Positions 34,096 to 61,365 of a DNA stretch of 64,000 bases are shown here, piece after piece. The DNA is from Dehalococcoidia bacterium (GTDB lineage: Bacteria > Chloroflexota > Dehalococcoidia > Lucifugimonadales > UBA3495): the NCBI GenBank assembly GCA_965215425.1, contig OZ244064.1, positions 1,244,095 through 1,308,094 of the forward strand, written 5' to 3'. The notes below the pieces were generated by a model. The model did no database searches, was not told where the DNA came from, and saw nothing but the letters and a program-made list of their open reading frames with translations. Position numbers and translations under genes: made by a program. The first letter of the stretch is position 1. Every line of letters begins with the position of its first letter.

Positions 34096-35166
34096 GTGGA
34101 AAGGAGCAATATGCCCGGACTTCCCGAGGCGGTTTCCCTGACCGTTTCCGTTCCCATCTTTCTTGCCAGCGCCGCTGCCGTTATCTTCCTGGGAGTGCAG
34201 CTTGCCAGGTATGGCGACGCCCTGGCGACTCTGACCGGCTGGGGCCGGCTGTTCGTCGGCAGCATCCTGGTGGCCCTGGCTACTTCCCTGCCGGAACTGT
34301 CCAACAACGTCACCGCGGTGCGGATTGACAACCCCCAACTGGCCCTGGGCAACGTGGTGGGGGCCAATATGATAAATATGTTCACCATGGCGGTGGTGGC
34401 CCTCCTCTTTGGTGGACGCCGTTTCCTGCAACGGGTGGCCCCGGAACAGGGTTACCTCATCGTCCTGGCCGCCATACTCACTGGGCTGGCCGTCCTGTTC
34501 GCCGGCTGGCACACCCTGGCCCCCAGCCCGGTTACCGAGCTCAACCTGTGGGCGATCGGGGCCTCCTCCATATTTCTGCTGGTAGTCTATGTTATCGGAA
34601 TGCGGATCGTCTATCAGAAAAGTCCGACCGGGGCGGCGGAGGAAGGGGGTGATGACCCGGGAATGTCCCTGGGCAAAGCCTGGGCGATGTTCAGCCTGGT
34701 GTCGGCGGGGGTGATCATCGCCGGGGTCTTTCTGGCCCAGAGCGCCGACTGGATTGCCGGCGCCACCGGCATATCCTCCGGCGTGCTGGGGATACTGGCC
34801 GTATCCATCGTAACCACGATGCCCGAGGCGTCGGCGTCGGTGGCGGCGGCTCGCATGGGCGCTGCGGATCTGGGCGTCGCCGGCTTATACGGCAGTTGCG
34901 TATTCAACGTAACCATCCTGGCCTACGCCGACCCCTTCTACCGGGGCGGGGAAAGCTGCGCTTCGGTGATAATACTCAACTGCCCCTCGCCGGAGCATTT
35001 CGTCGCCGGAATCAGCGCCATTGCCCTGATTTTATGGGGCGGGTTGCTGCTGTGGGGCCGGAACCGTTTCCCCCAACCGGTGGTAACCGGCGGGCTGGCG
35101 CTGATGGCCGCGGCATACCTGGCCGGGGCGGTGGGAGCGATACTGGTCTCCCGCCAGGGCGTCTGA
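34096..35166 (+). CDS. Na+/Ca2+ exchanger (CaCA, YrbG-like) membrane protein
   Basis: 356 aa, polytopic. Alpha-repeat motifs ATSLPELSNNV...GNVVGANMINMF and TTMPEASASV...GSCVFNV. Confidence 0.85.
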   Translation: MERSNMPGLPEAVSLTVSVPIFLASAAAVIFLGVQLARYGDALATLTGWGRLFVGSILVALATSLPELSNNVTAVRIDNPQLALGNVVGANMINMFTMAVVALLFGGRRFLQRVAPEQGYLIVLAAILTGLAVLFAGWHTLAPSPVTELNLWAIGASSIFLLVVYVIGMRIVYQKSPTGAAEEGGDDPGMSLGKAWAMFSLVSAGVIIAGVFLAQSADWIAGATGISSGVLGILAVSIVTTMPEASASVAAARMGAADLGVAGLYGSCVFNVTILAYADPFYRGGESCASVIILNCPSPEHFVAGISAIALILWGGLLLWGRNRFPQPVVTGGLALMAAAYLAGAVGAILVSRQGV

Positions 35167-35320
35167 TCCCGGGGCTTACCTACCCCTGGGGAAAAGGCGC
35201 CGGTCGTCATTGACGTCGGCGGGTACAGGACCCGCCGACTTCGATCGCAGTTGGACTACCCCAATGAAGGGACTCCGGCGGGTACAGTATCTGCCCCTAC
35301 CGCCCCGGCCCGCCGTCGAT

Positions 35321-35743
35321 CTAGGTCAACTTTCCGTAAACCCGTTCCGGGGTTACCAATATGCCCACCGCTTCCTGGGCCACCATCGCCCGGTCGTATT
35401 CCTCCCAATCGGGGTGGTCCTGGCCGCTGCACGCCCGGAAGATCTCCCGCAGGGTCAGCCGCAGTTCCTCGGCATCGGTATTATCCGCCGCCAACAGCCG
35501 GGCCGGGCCTTCCACCACCACGTAGCGGCGCCAGTCGTCGGTAACCGCCAGGACGGTGCATTGCGGGTTGCGCCGCAGGTTGCGCACCTTCCGGGACCTG
35601 GGATAGACCGAGGCCAGGGCCATGTAGCCCTGATAGGCGCCGCAGACCACCACGCTGGCCTGCACCGCTCCGTTGGGCTGAATCGTCTGCACCACCGCCC
35701 GGTGATTGGTCTCCAGAAAGGGCCGGATGTCCTCAAAGTCCAT
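35321..35743 (-). CDS. PPOX-class split-barrel protein (pyridoxamine 5'-phosphate oxidase / F420-dependent family)
   Basis: MDFEDIRPFLETNHRAVVQTIQPNGAVQASVV...RNLRRNPQCTVL. Start ATG 35743 is preceded by GGAGGT. Confidence 0.75.
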   Translation of the reverse strand: MDFEDIRPFLETNHRAVVQTIQPNGAVQASVVVCGAYQGYMALASVYPRSRKVRNLRRNPQCTVLAVTDDWRRYVVVEGPARLLAADNTDAEELRLTLREIFRACSGQDHPDWEEYDRAMVAQEAVGILVTPERVYGKLT

Positions 35744-35794
35744 AGCCGTCTGTACCTCCACATAAATCGGTTTGAAGACAGTATAGCAGAGGGT

Positions 35795-36784
35795 TCAGAA
35801 GGGCAGGTCGTCTTTCTGGTAACGGTTGGCGTAGGCCAGTTGGTTATCCAGGGACAAACGCGCTGTGTAGTCCGGGGAGTTCCGCAAATTGCGTAGGCTG
35901 ATCTCCAGAGTAGCTTTAGCCTGATATGCCTCGTAATGCCAGCGATCCTCGCAGCCGATTGCCGTATCCTGCAACACAACCTGGGCATCAAAGGGGCCCG
36001 GGGGTTCGGAGCTGCGGTTGAATCGGAAAACGAGTTGCGTATCGCTCATTTCCACCCGTTCAACAAAGGTCCATTTTCGGTTAAAGAGGCTGGGTTTAAT
36101 CACTATCTGCCGTAGCCACCGGGAGCGTGTATTCCGGGGCAACAGATACCAGAGAGTTTCGCGCTCCGCCGGGCTGCGACAACCGATGTAGCGCAGGCTT
36201 TCCAGCCCCATCCGCTGCGGAACCAGCACTTCGGCGGCGCGGCGATGGACTATCTGTCTGCGTTCCGAGGGGTCAAACCACGAATCATGATAGACCAGGT
36301 CGAAAGGGATTTGCTTGAGGAAGGAGACCGCGCCGCTGGGCGTCGCAGCGACAGCAGCGGCATTGCCCTCGGTAAAGAGGCAATCCTCCCGCGACAAAAC
36401 GGCCAGGGCGTCAAAGATGAAGTAAACCAGAACTGGACAGTGAGAGTCGAACTCCCGTTGCCCAACCGGTCGGAACCCCTCATTCTGATACTGCGTCGGG
36501 GTTTTGGGCCGGAAATACAACCGCACGTAGTCTTGCCACTGCGGGTTTGTGTGCGCAATAACCTCGGGAGCGGCTATATCCACCGCCAATTGACTCGTGC
36601 TTACCGCCAAGCTCCGGCTGAGCAGCTCGCCCTGTCGCAGTATGCTTGCCGCGTTGGTGATGTCGGTGCAATGGAACAAACAATCGGGCCACCACTGACG
36701 CGCTGGCCCTAACCAGTCGGCTTGGCGCAAGTTCGCCAGATGCTGGCGAATCTCAGCTATTTCCCTATCCGGGCGGAGGGTCAT
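35795..36784 (-). CDS. DarT-like (DUF4433) ADP-ribosyltransferase with N- and C-terminal extensions
   Basis: 329 aa. LFHCTDITNAASILRQGELLS, YVRLYFRPKTPTQY, LFTEGNAA and RRAAEVLVPQ line up with the conserved DarT blocks as I remember them (IYHITHIDNL..IL..G.L; VPFYF.PR.P; FTD.H; KQAEFLV). Its ATG overlaps the upstream stop (ATGA). Confidence 0.75.
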   Translation of the reverse strand: MTLRPDREIAEIRQHLANLRQADWLGPARQWWPDCLFHCTDITNAASILRQGELLSRSLAVSTSQLAVDIAAPEVIAHTNPQWQDYVRLYFRPKTPTQYQNEGFRPVGQREFDSHCPVLVYFIFDALAVLSREDCLFTEGNAAAVAATPSGAVSFLKQIPFDLVYHDSWFDPSERRQIVHRRAAEVLVPQRMGLESLRYIGCRSPAERETLWYLLPRNTRSRWLRQIVIKPSLFNRKWTFVERVEMSDTQLVFRFNRSSEPPGPFDAQVVLQDTAIGCEDRWHYEAYQAKATLEISLRNLRNSPDYTARLSLDNQLAYANRYQKDDLPF

Positions 36785-37716
36785 AAAAGTTCTACTGCGC
36801 CCACACCGGACAGCGAAAGTTGTTCCGGCTGCCTGGTGGGGCCACCTTTGCCGGGAATTATCCGCAACCCCAGAGTTTGCGGACTTACCCCTCTGGATCG
36901 CCTAGCCATCTTCACCGGCTGGATGTAGGGCAACTTTGCCATCAGGGGAATTATCCAGTCGGCATACTCACTCAGGCCGCCGGGCAGGTAATCACCACTC
37001 AGAAATCCGGCGGCGCGCAGTTGCTGCCAAAGATCCAGGAACGCCGCTTCGGGAATGGCAACTGACCCGTCAGCAAGCTCCAGGATTATTGAAACCTCGT
37101 CGGCGCCAATCCGCGCCGGGAAGGGATCGTCGCTGCCGTCCCCCGCCGCGCCGGCGCCAATCACCGAGACCAGATCCGTCCAGACCTCGGTAAAGGCCAG
37201 GGATTCCGGCTCGCCCCGCAGCCATTCCCTGGTTTCCCGGATACTGCGGTGTTCCGGCATATAGGGGTCTTCAAGGTCTTGCCGGTGAATGTAAACGTCT
37301 ATCGGCAGCTTGCCCAGATACTGCTCCATCAGGGGACGTACCTGAGTTTCCCAATTCAGTTCGCCGTTGCCGCAGCCCAGCAGGGGAAAGGAGATGTCCG
37401 TAATGCCATAAACGTGGTAAGTATCGGCAAATTTCCGCAACCCGGCCTCGATGTAATCGGGTCGGGAGGGGCTGCGCCAGTGTTTCTTGGTGGGAAAGTT
37501 CAGCACCCACTTGTGCGGCGTCCGGTAAAGCCACAGCTGGCCGGTGGCGAACAGACCCTTCTCGCACAGTTCCTGATACCGGGCAAACATTTCCGGGTAA
37601 ATGGTCTTGAAGTCCCTGGCGATCCCCTTCCCCATCACTCCCACGGTGTTCACCGTATTCACCAGAGTCCGGGCCGGACTGGTAAACAAGTCGCACACCA
37701 CGTAGGTAATCATCAT
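36781..37716 (-). CDS. DarG-like macrodomain protein
   Basis: MITYVVCDLFTSPARTLVNTVNTVGVMGKGIARDFKTIYPEMF...LNFPTKKHWRSPSRPDYIEAGL...FPLLGCGNGELNW closely follows the DarG macrodomain pattern. A C-terminal region of about 170 aa has unknown fold. Start trimmed to the ATG at 37716 or 37713. Confidence 0.8.
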   Translation of the reverse strand: MMITYVVCDLFTSPARTLVNTVNTVGVMGKGIARDFKTIYPEMFARYQELCEKGLFATGQLWLYRTPHKWVLNFPTKKHWRSPSRPDYIEAGLRKFADTYHVYGITDISFPLLGCGNGELNWETQVRPLMEQYLGKLPIDVYIHRQDLEDPYMPEHRSIRETREWLRGEPESLAFTEVWTDLVSVIGAGAAGDGSDDPFPARIGADEVSIILELADGSVAIPEAAFLDLWQQLRAAGFLSGDYLPGGLSEYADWIIPLMAKLPYIQPVKMARRSRGVSPQTLGLRIIPGKGGPTRQPEQLSLSGVGAVELL

Positions 37717-37847
37717 TAAACTCCCGGAAAAATTTTGATACCTTCGCTTCCTCTTCCTTTGATTCCGCAAGCTGCCATTTTGCCACGCCCGGCCCCGGGC
37801 CACAAGAAAGGCTTTGCACTGGTTCCGGCCAAATCGGTGGGATAAAT

Positions 37848-37876
37848 ATAATAGAATATATGTTCTGCATCTTCAA
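37848..37876 (-). promoter_or_regulatory. candidate promoter of the macro/DarT-like operon
   Basis: On the minus strand: TTGAAG, 17-nt spacer, TATTAT, within an AT-rich patch (GGGATAAATATAATAGAATATATG). Confidence 0.45.
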
Positions 37877-37903
37877 CCGGGAACTGTCAGGCCGGCAAGG
37901 GCA

Positions 37904-39415
37904 TCACCGGCCGTCCCGCCCTCCCGTCAGCAAAGCCGGCGCCAGCGCCAGCAAGGCGATTACCCCGGCAGCGCGGAAGAAGCGGTGGAACAGGCTCAGG
38001 CCGGCCCGGGTTACGGCGTCCTGATAGGCAACCAGCCGGGCCGCCGCCTCCGCCGCCGGTTCCCCGGGGGTTGGCAGGGGCAGGCTTAAACCGGCGGTCA
38101 GGGCCTGGAAGTGCTCGATGCCCCAGGCCGCCAGGGCCGCCAGACCCAGGGTCATCCCCAGCAGCCGCGACACCACCACCAACGCCGCCGCCGTCCCCCG
38201 GTAATCCTCGCTTACCGTGCGCAACGCCTGGGCCATTATCGGCGCAATGACCAGACCAAATCCCAGACCGGTTATTGCCAGGTGCAGCGTCAACGCCGGC
38301 TCCGCCACCTCCAGCCCCCAGCCGCCGACTAGGAACAAGCCCACCGCCGTCAGAACCAATCCGGCGGCAATCACCGACCGGCCTCCCCACCAATTGGGCC
38401 ACCACCGGGGCCACCACTTGGGCCACCAACCGGGCCAGGCCAGCAGTTGACCGCCGATAACCGCTCCCACCGGGATGGCGCCGGTCAGCCGCAGCAGCCA
38501 CAGGGCGCCGGTAAAGGGGTCTTTACCCATTACCGTGTTAGCCATCAAAGGCACAGTTACCAGGGTAATAATCAGCGAAACGCCTACCAGCAGTTGGGTC
38601 AGGTTGGCCGCCACGAAAGCTACCGACCGGAACAGCAACAGCGGCAACAGGGGCTGACCTACCCGCAATTCCAGCGCGCCCAGGCCCACCGCCAGGGCCA
38701 GCGCCAAGCCGCCCAGGAGGAAAGGCTGGGCCGAGGCCAGGGTGAACAGTCCGGGGCGGGACAGGGCCAGGGACAAGACCAGCAGCGTTGCCACCAGCAA
38801 AGCCCCGCCCAGGTAGTCCACCCGGGCCTCCCGGTTGCGGCGGTTGGGCAACCACAGCAGACCCGGCAGCAGCAGGGCGACCTGAGGCAGGTTCAGCCAG
38901 AAAAGCCACCGCCAGTCAGCCAACTCCACGATGACCCCGCCATAGGCCGGCCCCAGCATCGCACCGGCCTCGGCGGCGGCGCCGACGATGCCCAGCGCCA
39001 GGCCCCGGCGCTCCGGCGGCAACGCTCCGGCAGCCAGGGCAAACCCGACCGGCAGCGCCGCCGCGCCGCCGATGGCTTGAATGACCCGCGCCCCGATGAG
39101 CTCTTCCAGGCTGCCGGAAAGCGCCACCAGAATACTGCCCCCGGCGAATAGGCCCAACCCAATCATATAGACCCGCGGGCCGCCGTAAACGTCGGCCAGA
39201 CGGCCAATCAGCGGCATAAAGGCGGTGTAGCCCAGCAGATAGGCGGTAATAACCCAGGCTACCCGGTCCAACTCGGTTATCGGGATACGCAGGTCCAGCA
39301 TCATTGCCGGCAGGACGGTAACCACCACCGTCTGGTCCAGGGCGGTGAAAAAAGCGCCCAGACCGATGACGGCCAGGAGCAGCGGAACCCGGATTTCCCG
39401 GGGCTTGTCAACCAC
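37904..39415 (-). CDS. MFS transporter (14-TMS DHA2-like)
   Basis: 503 aa, polytopic. LDQTVVVTVLPAM and GRLADVYGGPRV motifs. Confidence 0.9.
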   Translation of the reverse strand: MVDKPREIRVPLLLAVIGLGAFFTALDQTVVVTVLPAMMLDLRIPITELDRVAWVITAYLLGYTAFMPLIGRLADVYGGPRVYMIGLGLFAGGSILVALSGSLEELIGARVIQAIGGAAALPVGFALAAGALPPERRGLALGIVGAAAEAGAMLGPAYGGVIVELADWRWLFWLNLPQVALLLPGLLWLPNRRNREARVDYLGGALLVATLLVLSLALSRPGLFTLASAQPFLLGGLALALAVGLGALELRVGQPLLPLLLFRSVAFVAANLTQLLVGVSLIITLVTVPLMANTVMGKDPFTGALWLLRLTGAIPVGAVIGGQLLAWPGWWPKWWPRWWPNWWGGRSVIAAGLVLTAVGLFLVGGWGLEVAEPALTLHLAITGLGFGLVIAPIMAQALRTVSEDYRGTAAALVVVSRLLGMTLGLAALAAWGIEHFQALTAGLSLPLPTPGEPAAEAAARLVAYQDAVTRAGLSLFHRFFRAAGVIALLALAPALLTGGRDGR

Positions 39416-42466: not shown

Positions 42467-42615
42467 GTTACCGGGCGGGGCGATCGGGCCGCAAACCCCC
42501 GAATATCGGCGTCCTTCCCGCCTTGCGGTTTTGGGTGGCCGGCCGCTAATCTGGTCAAACGGCCGCACGATACTATTTGCCGGGCGAGAAGCCTGCCGGG
42601 CTCTCCGATTGCGCT

Positions 42616-44004
42616 ATGACCAGCGAAAATACCTCGGCCAGGGAAACCTGGAACGCCACCCTGGGTCAACTGGAACTGGAGTTGCCCCGCGCCACTTTCG
42701 ATACCTGGCTGAAGCAGACCCGGGGCATCGGGTTCAACGGCGCCGACTTGTTGGTGGAGGTGCCCAACGCCTTTACTATTGCCTGGCTGGAACAACGGAT
42801 GTATCAGACCATCCGGCGTTCCCTGCGCCAGGCTTCCGACCAACCGCTGGACGTGCGGTTCCAGGTATCGCCGGAAGTCGCTGGGCCGGCGCCCCAGGCC
42901 CCTTCCCCGGAAGGCGTCGCCGCCCGGAACCGGGGAACGCCGGGGGGAACGATGGAAGGGCCGGCCGGCCCGCCGCCCGCCGCCGCCGGCTTCAGCTTCG
43001 ATGACAAGTATTCCTTCAACAGCTTTGTCGTCGGCAACTCCAACCGGATGGCCTTCAGCGCCGCCCAGGCGGTGGCCGACGCCCCCGGCCAGGCCTACAA
43101 CCCCCTGTTCCTCTACTCCGGCGTGGGGCTGGGCAAGACCCACCTGCTGCACGCCATCGGGCAGGAGACCGCCCGCCGGGGCCAGAGCGTCCTCTATGTC
43201 TCCTCCGAGCAGTTCACCAACGACTTCATTTCCGCCATCCGCAACCGCACGACCGAGGAGTTCCGGCAACGCTACCGGAGCGCCCAGGTGCTCCTGATTG
43301 ACGACGTGCAGTTTATGAGCGGGAAGGAGCAGACGCAGGAAGGGTTTTTCCACACCTTCAACGACCTCCATACCGCCGGCTACCAGATCGTGCTGACCTC
43401 CGACCGGCCGCCCAAATCCCTGGCCCTGCTGGAAGACCGGCTCCGCTCCCGCTTTGAATGGGGGCTGATTGCCGACATCCAGCCGCCCGACCTGGAAACC
43501 CGCATGGCAATCCTGTCCGCCAAGGCCGACCAGCTGAAGACCGCGCTGGAAGAAAGCGTGCTGGAGCTCATCGCCAAGCGGGTGCAGAAGAACGTCCGGG
43601 AACTGGAGGGCAGCCTGAACCGGGTGGTAGCCTACTCCCAGTTGATGAACACGCCGGTAACCCTGGAATCGACTTCCCGGCTGCTGGACGACCTGACGCT
43701 GGACACGGCCCGCCACGCCATCGACCCGGAGCGCATCCTGGAGCAGGTTTCCCGCCACTACCGGGTTGCCACCGCCGACCTGCTGGGCCGCCGCCGCAGC
43801 AAGATCATCGCCCTCGCCCGCCAGGTAGCCATGTACCTGCTGATCTACGAGCTGGAACTTTCCCCCACCGACGTCGGCCGGCTGCTGGGCAACCGGGACC
43901 ACTCCACCGTCATTCACGGCGCCGGCAAGATAAACGGGGAAATCAACGAGGATTACCAACTCCGCCAGGATGTGCTGAACATCAAAGAGGCGATATTTAC
44001 CTAG
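42616..44004 (+). CDS. dnaA: chromosomal replication initiator protein DnaA
   Basis: GVGLGKTHLLHAIG (Walker A), LLIDDVQF, a sensor region and the C-terminal DNA-binding domain (RQVAMYLL...DHSTVIHG). Start trimmed to ATG 42616. Confidence 0.95.
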   Translation: MTSENTSARETWNATLGQLELELPRATFDTWLKQTRGIGFNGADLLVEVPNAFTIAWLEQRMYQTIRRSLRQASDQPLDVRFQVSPEVAGPAPQAPSPEGVAARNRGTPGGTMEGPAGPPPAAAGFSFDDKYSFNSFVVGNSNRMAFSAAQAVADAPGQAYNPLFLYSGVGLGKTHLLHAIGQETARRGQSVLYVSSEQFTNDFISAIRNRTTEEFRQRYRSAQVLLIDDVQFMSGKEQTQEGFFHTFNDLHTAGYQIVLTSDRPPKSLALLEDRLRSRFEWGLIADIQPPDLETRMAILSAKADQLKTALEESVLELIAKRVQKNVRELEGSLNRVVAYSQLMNTPVTLESTSRLLDDLTLDTARHAIDPERILEQVSRHYRVATADLLGRRRSKIIALARQVAMYLLIYELELSPTDVGRLLGNRDHSTVIHGAGKINGEINEDYQLRQDVLNIKEAIFT

Positions 44005-58313: not shown

Positions 58314-59558
58314 ATGTCCCTGTTGGCCCGGCAAGACCCGGAAGTGGCCCGCGCCATCCAGCTGGAGGATGAGCGCCAGCGTAACTGCGTCGTCCTCATC
58401 GCCTCGGAAAACTACGCCAGCAAGGCGGTGCTGGAGGCCCAGTCCGGCGTGATGAACAACAAGTACGCCGAGGGCTACCCCGGTCGCCGCTACTATGGCG
58501 GCTGTGAGCACGTGGACGTAGTGGAAAGCCTGGCGATACAACGGGCCAAGGAGCTGTTCGGCGCCGAACACGCCAACGTGCAGCCCCACAGCGGGGCCCA
58601 GGCGAATATGGCCGTCTATTTTGCCCTGCTGGAGCCGGGAGATACGGTGCTGGGCATGGAACTGGCCCACGGCGGCCACCTGACCCACGGCGCCGGAGTC
58701 AACTTCTCCGGCAAGCTCTACAACTTCGTTCCCTACGGCGTCGACCGGGACACCGAGCAAATTGACTATGACGTGGTGGAACGGCTGGCCCGGGAACACC
58801 GGCCCAGGCTGATTGTCGCCGGGTGCAGCGCCTACGCCAGAACGCTGGACTTCCCCCGCTTCCGGGCCATCGCCGATGCGGTGGACGCCACCCTGATGGT
58901 GGATATGGCCCACATCGCCGGGTTGATTGCCGGCGGCGCCCATCCCTCGCCCTTTCCCCACGCCCACGTGGTTACCTCCACCACCCAGAAAAGCCTGCGC
59001 GGGCCTCGGGGCGGGTTCATTCTTTGCGCCGCCGACCTGGCGCGCAAAATCGATTTTGCGGTATTTCCCTTCATGCAGGGCGGGCCGCTGATGCAGGCCA
59101 TCGCCGCCAAGGCCGTCTGCTTCGGCGAGGCCCTCCGCCCCGAATTCGCCCGCTACGCCAACCAGGTGGTGGTCAATGCCGGGGTGATGGCGGCCGAAGT
59201 GTCCGAGGCCGGCCTGCGGCTGGTCTCCGGCGGTACGGAAAATCACCTGATCCTGGTGGACTTAACCCCCCTGGGCCTGACCGGTCAGGCGGCGGAAACC
59301 GCTTTGGAATCGGTGGGTATCATCGCTAACAAGAACGCCATACCCTTTGACCCCAAGCCGCCCCGGGTCGCCAGCGGCCTGCGCCTGGGAACCCCGGCCA
59401 TCACCAGCCGGGGCATGGCGGAAGTGGAAGTCAAGGAAGTGTCCCGGTTGATTGCCCAGACCCTGAACCAGATCGGCGATGCCCGGGCGCTGGGGCAGGT
59501 CAAGGACTCTGTCAAGGAACTCACCGCCCGTTTCCCGGTTCCGGGGCTGGATTCCTGA
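58314..59558 (+). CDS. glyA: serine hydroxymethyltransferase
   Basis: ASENY...[13 protein letters not shown]...[14 protein letters not shown] (PLP Lys). Start trimmed to ATG 58314. Confidence 0.95.
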
Positions 59559-59676
59559 CCGGTGGGGACGTTGGCCGGCCTCCCGACTATTGTTCCGGCC
59601 ATCGTCCGGCCTTCCCCCGCGCTCCGGGCCGACCCGGGCCGACGGGAATGGCGGAGAAAGCTCAACCCCCACCCGG

Positions 59677-59705
59677 TTGAGCGGTAAACCGGCCAGTGCT
59701 ATAAT
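59677..59705 (+). promoter_or_regulatory. candidate rpsF operon promoter
   Basis: TTGAGC (59677-59682), 17-nt spacer, TATAAT (59700-59705). Confidence 0.5.
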
Positions 59706-59739
59706 TGGGCGGCGGTTAAAACTTTTACAGGAGCGCCTT

Positions 59740-60321
59740 TTGCGTCATTACGAACTTGTAACCATCCTCAGCCCGATGCTCAGCCAGGACCAGGCCGCCG
59801 AGGCCTGGAGCCAGATTAGCGCCTTTATAACCAGTCGGAACGGGGAGATATTCCAGGAACAGCCTTGGGGTACGCGTCGGTTGGCCTACCCGATTCACCG
59901 GGGAAACCATCACTTTCTGGAGGGCAACTATCGCCTGATCCGTTTCTCCACCGAAAGGCCCTTCAACCAAGCCCTGGAAACCTTCCTGCGCGTGGATGAA
60001 CGGGTGCTGCGCTCGCTGGTGGTGTCCATCCCGGAGCCTACCGTTATCCCCGATGCGACCGCCGCGACCGGCGCGGCGGCTGCCCCGGCAGCGGCCCCGC
60101 CGGTCGCCGCCGTACCGGAAGCAACGCCGGCGGCGGAAGCGCCGGAGCCGGAGCCGGAACCTGGGCCAGAACCGGGCCCGTCAGCGGTGGAAGGGGAAGC
60201 AGCGGCAGCGCCGGTGGAAGCGACGCCCGCGGCAGCCCCCGCCCCGGCAGCGGAACCCCCCACCAGCGGGGAGAACGCCGGGGAAGACGCTGCCCCGGCA
60301 GCGGAACAGTCCTCAACATAG
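59740..60321 (+). CDS. rpsF: 30S ribosomal protein S6 with a long Ala/Pro/Glu-rich C-terminal extension
   Basis: TTG start after CAGGAG. RHYELVTILSP...WGTRRLAYPI...GNYRLIRF, followed by about 95 aa of low complexity. Confidence 0.85.
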   Translation: MRHYELVTILSPMLSQDQAAEAWSQISAFITSRNGEIFQEQPWGTRRLAYPIHRGNHHFLEGNYRLIRFSTERPFNQALETFLRVDERVLRSLVVSIPEPTVIPDATAATGAAAAPAAAPPVAAVPEATPAAEAPEPEPEPGPEPGPSAVEGEAAAAPVEATPAAAPAPAAEPPTSGENAGEDAAPAAEQSST

Positions 60322-60341
60322 GCAGGGTAGGCAGGTCGCGG

Positions 60342-60791
60342 TTGAACAAAATCATTGTCATCGGCAACGTGGGCCGAGACCCGGAAATGCGCTACACGCC
60401 CAGCGGCCAGGGGGTTACCTCTTTCAGCGTGGCCTCCAATCGCCGTTATCGCACCGCCGCCGGTGAGCAACGGGAGGAAACCGAGTGGTTTAACGTCAGC
60501 GCCTGGGGACGCCTGGCCGAAATTTGCAACCAGTACCTGACCCGGGGCCAGCAAGTTTATGTGGAGGGCCGGCTGCGCAGCCGGAGCTACCAGGGAAGCG
60601 ACGGCCAGCCCCGCTTTTCCCTGGAAATTACGCTGACGGAAATGCAGATGCTGGGTTCCCGCGGCTCCGGTATGGAGGAAGACCGCTCTCCCTACGGAAA
60701 TGAGGGCGGCCGGGGCGTGAGTGACTACGGCGGTGGTTATGGCGGAGGCTACGGCGGCCAACGTGACGAAATTGACGACCTGCCCTTCTAG
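60342..60791 (+). CDS. ssb: single-stranded DNA-binding protein
   Basis: NKIIVIGNVGRDPEMRYTPSG...WFNVSAWGRLAE, a Gly-rich tail and the acidic tip DEIDDLPF. Confidence 0.92.
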   Translation: MNKIIVIGNVGRDPEMRYTPSGQGVTSFSVASNRRYRTAAGEQREETEWFNVSAWGRLAEICNQYLTRGQQVYVEGRLRSRSYQGSDGQPRFSLEITLTEMQMLGSRGSGMEEDRSPYGNEGGRGVSDYGGGYGGGYGGQRDEIDDLPF

Positions 60792-60942
60792 GTCCTCGAA
60801 GCGGTATCCCAAAAACCGGGGCCGGCTTGCCGCCCCCGGCTATCGGCGGCGCTAACCGGCTCCCGATAACCAGCCCGAATTACCATAAATCAGCCCTGAT
60901 AGCTATAACCAGCCCTGATACTAACGGAGGAGAAGCACCGGC

Positions 60943-61365
60943 ATGACGACACCTGCCCCGGCGCCCGCGCCGGCAGCCCCGGCGCCCCGAACGTCCCCGG
61001 CTCCCCAGACCCGGCCGGCCCCCGGCGGCCGGCCCGGCCCGGGCGGTCCCGGCGGTTCCTACCAGTCCCGCGGCCCGCGTCCGGCCGGGGGCCCGCGTCC
61101 CGGCGGACGCCCCCGGGGCCGCTACGCCCCCCGGCGGCGCGTCTGTTCCTTCTGTGTGGACCACGTTAAGCTGATTGACTACAAAGACTTTGAGCGGCTG
61201 CGCCGGTACGTATCGGACCGGGCCAAAATCGAGCCGCGCCGCAAGAGCGGGGTTTGCGCCAGGCACCAGCGCGCCCTCAGCCTGGCAATCAAGCGGGCCC
61301 GGCATTTGGCGCTCCTGCCCTTTGTCCCCGTGCAGCAGGCTGTGCGGAGCGGGATGCGCCGCTAA
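60943..61365 (+). CDS. rpsR: 30S ribosomal protein S18 with a Pro/Gly/Arg-rich N-terminal extension
   Basis: The C-terminal core is [59 protein letters not shown]. It is preceded by about 65 aa of low complexity. GGAGGAG SD upstream. Confidence 0.85.

Follow-up and report, generated by a model that had tools for sequence, protein, structure and literature searches.

DNA ADP-ribosylation by DarT is studied as a phage defence, as a regulator of replication in Mycobacterium tuberculosis and as a genome-editing tool, and it raises the question of how such an enzyme is switched on and how it reaches single-stranded DNA (ssDNA) that is coated with the ssDNA-binding protein SSB. We address this question with a gene pair in a 64,000-nucleotide window of a Dehalococcoidia bacterium (Chloroflexota; contig OZ244064.1, positions 1,244,095 to 1,308,094), where a gene for a DarG-like macrodomain protein (the eraser) is followed on the minus strand by a gene for a DarT-like ADP-ribosyltransferase (the writer). 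A sequence-only reading of the window had described the pair as a possible variant DarTG module with its genes in reversed order. We find that the reversed order is by itself minor; a LexA-type operator, an SSB-like tip, a replaced toxin-binding domain and an altered active site define the subfamily. The pair is almost certainly of the DarT/DarG type, and on balance we favour the picture of an SOS-induced, SSB-hub-targeted, reversible ssDNA ADP-ribosylation module. The genes are arranged as follows.

36781..37716, minus strand: macro (DarG-like) gene, an open reading frame (ORF) of 310 or 311 amino acids that matches Pfam Macro
35795..36784, minus strand: DarT-like ADP-ribosyltransferase gene, an ORF of 329 amino acids that matches Pfam DarT
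37721..37725, minus strand: Shine-Dalgarno-like GGGAG, read from the sequence upstream of the macro start codons

As had been read from the letters, two coupled ORFs are present on the minus strand, with the macro stop codon TGA (36781-36783) and the DarT-like start codon ATG (36784-36782) sharing the bases ATGA in a 4-nt overlap, and the motifs quoted for the two proteins, VNTVNTVGVMGKG, NFPTKKHW, GCGNG and AEVLV, all occur. The macro protein most likely starts at the second ATG at 37713 (M-I-T-Y-V) rather than at 37716, because homologues begin with M-I-T-Y in the family alignments; relatives are also purine-rich (GGGGG, GGAG) at the position of the Shine-Dalgarno-like element. Adjacent, co-oriented genes and a two-domain antitoxin with an N-terminal macrodomain are features shared with DarTG2 (Thermus aquaticus, M. 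tuberculosis and enteropathogenic Escherichia coli; PF14487 plus macrodomain), as are the DarT fold, the H-Y-E triad and the DarG-type macrodomain Asn and Lys. In contrast, darT precedes darG in all eight plasmid DarTG2 loci of our canonical comparison set (E. coli, Meiothermus, Zymomonas, Bacillus thuringiensis, Moraxella, Corynebacterium, Sulfitobacter and Synechocystis), whereas this family has the macro gene first and the DarT-like gene second with a 4-nt overlap. An antitoxin gene that comes first and is translationally coupled is the layout of type II toxin-antitoxin (TA) modules.

The writer matches Pfam DarT (PF14487, the DUF4433 assignment made earlier) over residues 37-234 with an E value of 2.8e-31 and 109 bits (cutoff 22.5), which covers profile positions 1-200 of 201 and thus nearly the whole profile. 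It also matches the PADLOC DarT model (2.1e-23) and NCBIfam NF048013 toxin_DarT at 71.5 bits, which is under the equivalog cutoff of 150. Similarity to solved DarT enzymes is distant in sequence (~1e-3), and alignment with nine canonical DarT2 sequences using hhalign gave a probability of 98.8% and an E value of 7e-17 for the core only. We modelled both proteins with AlphaFold2 (AF2), using ~100 homologues each as input. The writer model has a mean predicted local distance difference test score (pLDDT) of 91 and a predicted template modelling score (pTM) of 0.91, and Foldseek placed it closest to Thermus DarT (7omv, E 1e-12, template modelling (TM) score 0.74, target-normalised) and next to M. 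tuberculosis DarT (2e-10). Sequence and fold searches with the writer returned DarT2 structures and no DarT1 structure.

36083..36682, minus strand: DarT catalytic core, residues 35-234, from alignments with Thermus and M. tuberculosis DarT and from hhalign

Within this core the triad consists of H38, Y90 and E185 (codon 36230-36232). H38, T40, N44, Y90 and E185 align with Thermus H13, T15, N19, Y71 and E160 and are invariant in 95 homologues, and E185 also aligns with the Glu that was mutated in M. tuberculosis DarT. T40 and N44 correspond to contacts with the NAD ribose (residue roles from PMC9967889, PMC11543638). The base-reading position is occupied by N141, which is H119 in Thermus and also Asn in M. 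tuberculosis DarT. By its model and these alignments, the second gene encodes a DarT-fold transferase with the H-Y-E triad.

37279..37713, minus strand: DarG/TARG1-type macrodomain, residues 1-145, from alignment with DarG structures and from Foldseek

The eraser matches Pfam Macro over residues 19-124 (E 1.2e-14), in keeping with the earlier assignment of a DarG-like macrodomain. Its matches to the PADLOC DarG model (1.1e-54) and to NCBIfam NF048014 antitoxin_DarG (168 bits, under the equivalog cutoff of 250) are confined to profile positions 1-144 of 329 and 1-147, respectively. The macrodomain matches the DarG structures of M. tuberculosis (5m3i, 1e-31) and T. aquaticus (5m31, 1e-30), superimposes on the T. 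aquaticus DarG macrodomain in Foldseek with a TM score of 0.86, a root-mean-square deviation of 1.9 A and 40% identity, and is 40-43% identical to DarG macrodomains versus 26-27% to TARG1. An Asn (VNTVN-T) and a Lys (NFPTK-K) take the places of N22 and K80 in T. aquaticus DarG, whose roles are described in PMC13309987 and PMC11543638, and both are invariant across 95-100 homologues. On these alignments the first gene is a DarG/TARG1-type macrodomain hydrolase in which the catalytic Asn and Lys are present.

The sequence-only reading had left open whether the pair belongs to a common, already characterised subtype. The pair is no rare find: when 1.84 billion representatives of 50%-identity clusters were searched with a profile, 2063 matched at E<=1e-3 and 647 of these at E<=1e-30, with most of the 150 best aligning from end to end (~330 amino acids). 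Full-length homologues of both proteins are numerous and co-occur on common contigs, and both extra domains are recognisable down to ~25-35% identity. Scanning one genome per species gave 52 loci, nearly all in Chloroflexota (Dehalococcoidia, Anaerolineae, Phototrophicaceae and Aggregatilineales). In 47 of the 52, the DarT-like gene has the macro gene as its immediate upstream neighbour on that strand, bearing out the reversed order that had been noted, and a 4-nt (NTGA) overlap of start and stop is found in 36 of 46 loci. Outside Chloroflexota, diverged relatives with the eraser gene first are carried by conjugative plasmids of Agrobacterium leguminum and Rhizobium acidisoli; their macro proteins have 277-303 amino acids, their DarT-like proteins 329, and the genes overlap. 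A literature search found no paper describing this subtype, the known kinds being DarTG1 (NADAR), DarTG2 (macro) and DarHTG (ARH plus helicase), and the accessible part of the supplement to a 5,000-sequence DarT tree (PMC11481870) holds no family motifs. Sequence comparison thus places the pair in a large DarTG subfamily of the DarTG2 lineage that is undescribed in the literature searched.

How the pair would be switched on can be read from its promoter. An AT-rich promoter of its own had been proposed and is present (TTGAAG-17-TATTAT), and it is more than AT-rich in that it carries a conserved LexA-type operator.

37848..37876, minus strand: promoter P1, sigma-70-like in a consensus scan, with the -35 element TTGAAG at 37876-37871, the -10 element TATTAT at 37853-37848 and a spacing of 17
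37865-37854, minus strand: LexA-type box GAACATATATTC between the -35 and -10 elements, one mismatch to GAAC-N4-GTTC

Close relatives have, upstream of the macro gene, TTGACn, 5-6 bases, AGAAC-N4-GTTC and then directly TAT(A/T)nT, and the family consensus reads TTGAc-N5-6-tAGAAC-N4-GTTCTAt. We counted boxes in the 260 nt upstream of the macro gene at 46 loci, with random 260-nt windows of the same loci as background. Perfect GAAC-N4-GTTC was found at 10 of 46 loci (0.4% in the background), a one-mismatch version at 22 (7.5%), and a box with at most one mismatch at 32 (8%). Of the 19 perfect sites in the 629 kb of examined DNA, 10 fall at this promoter position. The N4 spacer varies freely and the half-sites are kept, which is the signature of the operator of a dimeric protein. 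In the window there are 19 one-mismatch sites versus 20.7 expected, and therefore the window site alone is not significant and the case rests on conservation.

GAAC-N4-GTTC is the Gram-positive LexA motif and GTTC-N7-GTTC the alphaproteobacterial one (PMC3323433). In place of the GAAC-N4-GTTC palindrome, which they lack, three Rhizobiaceae plasmid homologues have GTTC-N7-GTTC without mismatch, 29-49 nt upstream of the macro start, and only two other copies of GTTC-N7-GTTC occur in 96 kb of comparison loci. That the operator type follows the host phylum in these sequences is the decisive observation for the LexA reading. Fernandez de Henestrosa and co-workers reportedly found in 2002 that the LexA of Dehalococcoides binds the Gram-positive box. 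The operator is also a difference from canonical DarTG2, since none of the eight canonical loci has a host-type box within 400 nt upstream of darT. We consider it likely that LexA controls the operon, a link to DarTG for which our literature search found no paper. SOS-regulated TA modules such as tisB/istR-1, yafNO and symER would be comparable, with a LexA operator before the toxin gene or the whole operon and induction by damage (PMC11951105); their toxins are membrane peptides or RNases, none of them a DNA ADP-ribosyltransferase.

The same palindrome could instead be the antitoxin's own operator, bound through the macro C-terminal domain in an ordinary DarTG2 TA or abortive-infection module that has no link to SOS or SSB and in which the LPF end of the writer is an antitoxin contact or a degradation signal. 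Such a module would fit the antitoxin-first overlapping genes, which are the classic autoregulated type II layout (PMC11869752), the box that accompanies the module into a metagenome-assembled genome (MAG) labelled Bacillota (locus L024), the defence neighbours on the Rhizobiaceae plasmids and the PADLOC models that match both proteins. However, the operator switches with phylum from an inverted GAAC-N4-GTTC in Chloroflexota to a direct GTTC-N7-GTTC in Rhizobiaceae, each the LexA motif of its group, while the macro C-terminal domain stays homologous, and a domain that keeps its fold is not expected to change from a palindrome to a direct repeat. Because the operator type switches with the host, we regard autoregulation of an ordinary module as unlikely.

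The C terminus of the writer suggests how a LexA-controlled enzyme could be brought to its substrate.

35798..35815, minus strand: writer tail K-D-D-L-P-F-COOH, a coil with AF2 pLDDT ~72 that looks like an SSB tip
60342..60791, plus strand: host ssb gene, 149 amino acids, ending in ...EIDDLPF (Pfam SSB 5.7e-39), a comparator outside the operon

The writer ends in ...QKDDLPF, and its last five residues, DDLPF, are identical to those of the host SSB in the same window. The ending [DE][DE][LIV]PF is confined to this SSB and the DarT-like proteins among the 2156 stop-to-stop frames of at least 100 amino acids in all examined DNA. Across 242 full-length members, Phe is last in 197, Pro is at -2 in 192 and Leu, Ile or Val is at -3 in 191 (79-81% each); Asp or Glu prevails at -4 and -5, and the commonest last hexapeptide is DDDLPF. 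LPF is the usual ending in Dehalococcoidia and IPF the usual one in Anaerolineae. The LPF/IPF alternation also occurs between SSBs, DDDLPF being the Gram-positive SSB tip and DDDIPF that of E. coli SSB. Like SSB with its C-terminal tip (SSB-Ct), the writer finishes its flexible tail with acidic residues and then [IL]-P-F at the free end; the difference is that this tip is carried by an enzyme without an oligonucleotide-binding (OB) fold. No toxin or ADP-ribosyltransferase is known to us to carry an SSB tip, although no exhaustive search was made. In SSB itself, partner proteins dock on the DDDIPF or DDDLPF tip (PMC5872125, PMC5531588, PMC10018359). The residue-for-residue match of the last five residues to the host SSB tip and the switch between LPF and IPF from class to class, as in SSB tips, also argue against the tail as an antitoxin contact or degradation signal. 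From its sequence, we lean slightly towards a tail that functions as an SSB-tip mimic. The host ssb gene lies in a cluster at window positions 59479-61365 (plus strand) that resembles rpsF, ssb and rpsR, with Pfam confirmation for ssb only.

The second half of the eraser also departs from the canonical system.

36859..37266, minus strand: alpha/beta C-terminal domain of the macro protein, residues ~150-285, from AF2, with no Pfam or PDB sequence match
36784..36858, minus strand: macro protein tail, AF2 pLDDT <50 for residues 290-310, with a conserved G-L-R motif

The C-terminal stretch without a family that had been pointed out is real, spans ~165 amino acids and is conserved in homologues. 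A profile of the C-terminal domain found no match in Pfam and no PDB chain, the M. tuberculosis DarT-DarG entry 7yk3 included, and hhalign against eight canonical DarG proteins gave a probability of 0.2%. The AF2 model of the macro protein has a pLDDT of 82 and is good apart from the tail, with a well-predicted alpha/beta domain at residues ~158-285 and residues 200-270 mostly at 87-96. Foldseek with the uncropped model against PDB and viral libraries returned macrodomain matches only, so the fold of the C-terminal domain stays without assignment. A homologue search with this domain alone gave three in-family matches and no new architecture. The domain is kept along with the family, including in the Rhizobium binae protein. 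By these sequence comparisons it is unrelated to the canonical DarG toxin-binding domain, and the canonical eraser is ~340-366 amino acids long as opposed to 310 or 311 here; we presume that the new domain neutralises the toxin in its place. The tail that follows ends in VEPE in 49 of 114 homologues (G-L-R...V-E-P-E-COOH) and in VELL in the window protein. It is conserved in spite of its low AF2 confidence and may be a mimic for the toxin groove or a degradation signal.

Taken together, the operator, the tip and the paired enzymes suggest the following course of events. In an undamaged cell, LexA bound between the -35 and -10 elements would silence the operon, and RecA activated by ssDNA would lead to LexA cleavage and to synthesis of both proteins, the eraser first. 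The writer would then dock on the SSB interaction network through its acidic SSB-like tip, perhaps also through its immunoglobulin (Ig)-like domain, with either the pockets of SSB partners or the OB fold of SSB as the docking site, and would thereby reach the SSB-covered ssDNA of gaps and stalled forks. At these sites it would ADP-ribosylate an ssDNA base, most likely thymine, and slow replication; we give thymidine in ssDNA an even chance of being the acceptor. The macrodomain would remove the mark, and the unrelated C-terminal domain and acidic tail would restrain the writer, as the canonical DarG C-terminal domain does. The outcome would be a reversible replication brake or an abortive response that is triggered by damage or phage, from a stable chromosomal gene pair in Chloroflexota and from a pair beside defence genes on Rhizobiaceae plasmids. 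Since the SOS response is set off by DarT's own ADP-ribosylation of DNA (PMC5179494, PMC7003065), LexA control would make a feedback loop that the eraser must balance.

Several points weigh against this picture. The box in the window carries a mismatch (ATTC for GTTC). Neither recA nor lexA was found in the examined DNA with E. coli and B. subtilis queries. The Rhizobiaceae homologues are without the tip, so the tip is not essential to the module, and an SSB-like tip on a protein other than SSB would be expected to bind SSB partners and not SSB itself. The Chloroflexota neighbours are housekeeping genes and not defence islands, with true defence genes occasional. Finally, the canonical catalytic Arg (Thermus R51; R52 in DarT1) aligns to T79, an invariant Thr in the Chloroflexota clade, and the counterpart of Thermus M78 is the invariant T97; with R51 and M78 replaced, the enzyme could therefore be weak or use another acceptor.

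This last point bears on what the writer modifies. In the DarT2 mechanism R51 abstracts the thymine N3 proton (PMC9967889), and R52 is its DarT1 counterpart (PMC11543638). The loop equivalent to the one with the Arg is nine residues shorter here and hhalign puts the canonical Arg at the edge of the deletion, so this part of the alignment is uncertain; a Rhizobiaceae homologue has Arg at the T79 position. Invariant residues specific to the family are R57, R88, C116-P117 and C202-R203. R57 follows strand 2, and R88 belongs to V-R-L-Y-F, the counterpart of V-P-F-Y-F in canonical DarT; because it stands two residues before the nicotinamide-stacking Tyr, R88 probably lies on the same strand face as that Tyr. 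The proposal that the pair is a variant DNA-ADP-ribosylating module therefore holds for the variant DarTG, while a simple DNA-thymidine toxin is not assured with Arg51 and Met78 replaced. Likewise, of the catalytic residues, the H-Y-E triad is kept, including the Glu of the AEVLV region on which the earlier assignment had leaned, and the Arg of DarT1 and DarT2 aligns to Thr.

With the two residues of the DarT2 mechanism replaced, the writer, once induced by SOS, might instead act on RNA or on a protein from the SSB network, with the macrodomain reversing the mark, which would make the pair a damage-signalling system and not a TA module. TARG1-type macrodomains also clear ADP-ribose from acidic residues and phosphate ends (PMC11833690), the SSB-like tip would lead the enzyme to SSB partners (PMC10018359), and the pair is stably inherited amid housekeeping genes. 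Yet the macrodomain is nearer to DarG, in identity as in TM score, than to TARG1, the writer is structurally nearest to thymidine-specific DarT and shares its base-reading Asn with M. tuberculosis DarT, and the Rhizobiaceae relatives keep Arg at the T79 position. DarT is also without auto-ADP-ribosylation (PMC9967889), and no protein substrate is reported in the literature found. We consider a protein or RNA target improbable, somewhat more so than autoregulation of an ordinary module.

Loss of the canonical catalytic Arg in the Chloroflexota clade could also mean that the writer is catalytically dead or nearly so and that the pair is a remnant, decayed or put to a new use, in which the macro protein might for instance serve as a stand-alone eraser against foreign DarT-like toxins. 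Scores under the NCBIfam equivalog cutoffs, a frameshifted second DarT-like copy without a macro gene (L043) and a Rhizobium binae writer that is disrupted by insertion sequences next to an intact macro gene would all be in line with decay. Against this, the whole 329 amino acids are strongly constrained across hundreds of clusters, with the five aligned active-site residues (H38, T40, N44, Y90, E185) and the family-specific R57, R88, C116-P117 and C202-R203 all invariant, the AF2 model is very confident, and coupling to an eraser together with damage-responsive repression is expected for an active, dangerous enzyme. Because conservation is this strong, we hold a dead enzyme to be very unlikely, and we retain an active, SOS-induced and SSB-directed writer as the preferred reading.

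The writer extends beyond the DarT core on both sides.

36683..36784, minus strand: N-terminal extension, residues 1-34, outside the Pfam and hhalign matches
35816..36073, minus strand: seven-strand beta-sandwich like Ig and fibronectin type III (FN3) domains, residues 238-323, with AF2 strands at 241-323 and high pLDDT

The N- and C-terminal extensions that had been described are conserved in homologues and measure ~35 and ~95 amino acids, and, as had been said of the extra domains, no known family was matched by sequence. AF2 predicts a helix at residues 6-21 of the N-terminal extension, where W24 is found in at least 90% of members and W32 is invariant. The Ig-like domain is conserved in the family and absent from canonical DarT; its profile has no meaningful match in Pfam or PDB sequences, and Foldseek gave weak FN3/Ig matches with TM scores of 0.45-0.62. 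The designed repeat propeller Tako8, which appeared as a relative of this domain in a whole-sequence match (E ~1e-6), was rejected as an artefact in which the individual stretches are insignificant. With its N-terminal helix, Ig-like domain and SSB-like tip, the writer reaches 329 amino acids, compared with ~212-218 in canonical DarTG2.

Further elements were noted around the promoter.

37776..37805, minus strand: conserved second upstream element, located after the LexA-type promoter and before the start codon: TTGTGG-17-(TGg)CAAAAT, containing GTGGCAAAATG at 37786-37776

The stretch GTGGCAAAATG is exact in the window and in loci L001, L002, L005 and L016 and near-exact in L003, L008, L017 and L023; the element may be a constitutive second promoter or a signal in the 5′ untranslated region. 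A conserved CTGACA is found at window positions 37883-37888 (minus strand) and likewise in L001, L004, L006, L007 and L020, with TGACA in L003 and L008. It sits ~7-9 nt upstream of the -35 element of the macro promoter and could be an UP-like element or a second site. Elsewhere, another pair-bearing genome (L028 3316-3357) has two perfect GAAC-N4-GTTC boxes, whose starts are separated by 30 nt, directly upstream of a minus-strand ORF of 118 amino acids; on inspection by eye this ORF looks like the C-terminal ATPase portion of UvrA, and the boxes would be a second candidate SOS operator. The canonical DarTG2 locus on the Sulfitobacter plasmid (L062 2417-2431) has a perfect GAAC-N7-GAAC within the 3′ end of darT, 84 nt ahead of darG; the 96 kb contain just one more such site outside the family loci, and this one may be due to chance. 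A scan of 35000-38600 at E<=1 gave no Rfam match, and therefore no known riboswitch or leader is present there.

In the window the gene order is AsnC-type regulator, Na/Ca exchanger, PNPOx-like, DarT-like, macro, MFS transporter, LppX-like lipoprotein, PD40-repeat protein and dnaA. A related Dehalococcoidia MAG has the same order of MFS, pair, PNPOx and Na/Ca exchanger, and there the DarT-like protein is 66% identical to that of the window, compared with 82% for MFS and 90% for PNPOx. The less GC-biased codon usage that had been remarked on was confirmed, as the overall GC content is lower too and the GC content at third codon positions is 0.69 and 0.71 in the pair versus 0.79-0.84 in the adjoining Na/Ca-exchanger, PNPOx and MFS genes. 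The horizontal acquisition that it had suggested was not borne out. The pair is ~9 GC points lower than its flanks in 32 of 34 family loci, and low GC is therefore a family trait and no mark of a recent event; with synteny conserved in related Dehalococcoidia as well, recent horizontal transfer was rejected. Sequence comparison points to vertical inheritance of the pair in this lineage, with faster evolution than its neighbours. A phage origin was also rejected, as nothing matched in 50,697 phage records. The dnaA gene lies at window positions 42577-44004 (plus strand; Pfam DnaA_N, Bac_DnaA and Bac_DnaA_C), ~5 kb from the pair and with equal spacing in the locus of the related MAG (L053), and therefore the module is origin-proximal in this lineage. 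M. tuberculosis darTG, too, lies in an origin-proximal region, that of dnaB and ssb.

Other clades have conserved contexts of their own with two-component systems, ABC transporters and metabolic genes. A defence-island setting was rejected for Chloroflexota, where the PADLOC mad3 and mad8 matches are a generic kinase and regulator. Whereas four of the eight canonical DarTG2 loci adjoin type I restriction-modification genes, the Chloroflexota pair is chromosomal, syntenic and not inside such operons. On the Rhizobiaceae plasmids the neighbours are TIR, SIR2, reverse-transcriptase and VapBC genes. Plasmid p3 of Rhizobium binae (L054 3013-5186) has an intact macro gene and keeps the alphaproteobacterial LexA-type box, and its DarT-like gene is interrupted by IS3 and IS66 with remnants matching residues 28-164, so that the writer is lost and the eraser retained.

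Several unusual architectures came up in these searches. P0361, a protein of 482 amino acids from the representative search, has an N-terminal TIR_2 fused to a DarT-like protein of this family, joining an NAD-consuming defence domain to the writer. In P0340 (587 amino acids) a DarT-like family protein is followed by a GreA/GreB C-terminal domain, which may be a true fusion or a gene-calling artefact. On a plasmid of Calothrix sp. PCC 7716 (L059 1345-3154) a PIN_12 protein is encoded directly upstream of, and overlapping, a DarG-like macrodomain gene that is seemingly split into two ORFs, with no DarT; this may be a different toxin with a DarG-type macrodomain. A Hymenobacter sp. NBH84 plasmid (L066 1-3978) encodes a giant multidomain protein of >1,300 amino acids, annotated as DarT family and cut by the locus end, with an embedded DarT core that is 29% identical to residues 28-205 of the window protein. 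The second DarT-like copy in one Dehalococcoidia genome (L043 6001-6974, on the contig of L013) is without an upstream macro gene and without the LPF tail, and its match is divided between two frames; this copy is probably a paralogue in decay.

The DarT core combines with different partners (PMC11543638, PMC13069673). DarTG1 (DarT1 plus NADAR) and DarHTG (DarT, helicase and the ARH-type DarG3) resemble the pair in having a DarT-family writer with a dedicated eraser, but the eraser here is a macrodomain and not NADAR or ARH, and there is no helicase. A more distant likeness is to eukaryotic PARP1 and TARG1, which also combine an ARTD-class writer and a TARG1-class eraser in a DNA-damage context. 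This is an analogy only: induction here would act through LexA-controlled transcription, the presumed acceptor is an ssDNA base, and there is no evidence of chains. A bolder possibility, which we regard as doubtful at present, is that at least one bacterial phylum uses a PARP-like damage mark, in which a LexA-induced pair with SSB-tip mimicry reversibly ADP-ribosylates gaps and stalled forks as a replication checkpoint and the Thr-for-Arg active site tunes a toxin into a regulator or changes its acceptor.

For the DarT family, this subfamily offers readable answers to how the enzyme is switched on and how it reaches SSB-coated ssDNA, in the form of a damage-responsive operator and an SSB-tip look-alike. 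In its eraser, the toxin-binding half of DarG appears to be replaced by an unrelated domain. By alignment, an Arg held to be essential for base ADP-ribosylation would be dispensable or relocated, which bears on substrate prediction across the family. The subfamily is large and, in the literature searched, undescribed, and its regulation and targeting are directly testable.

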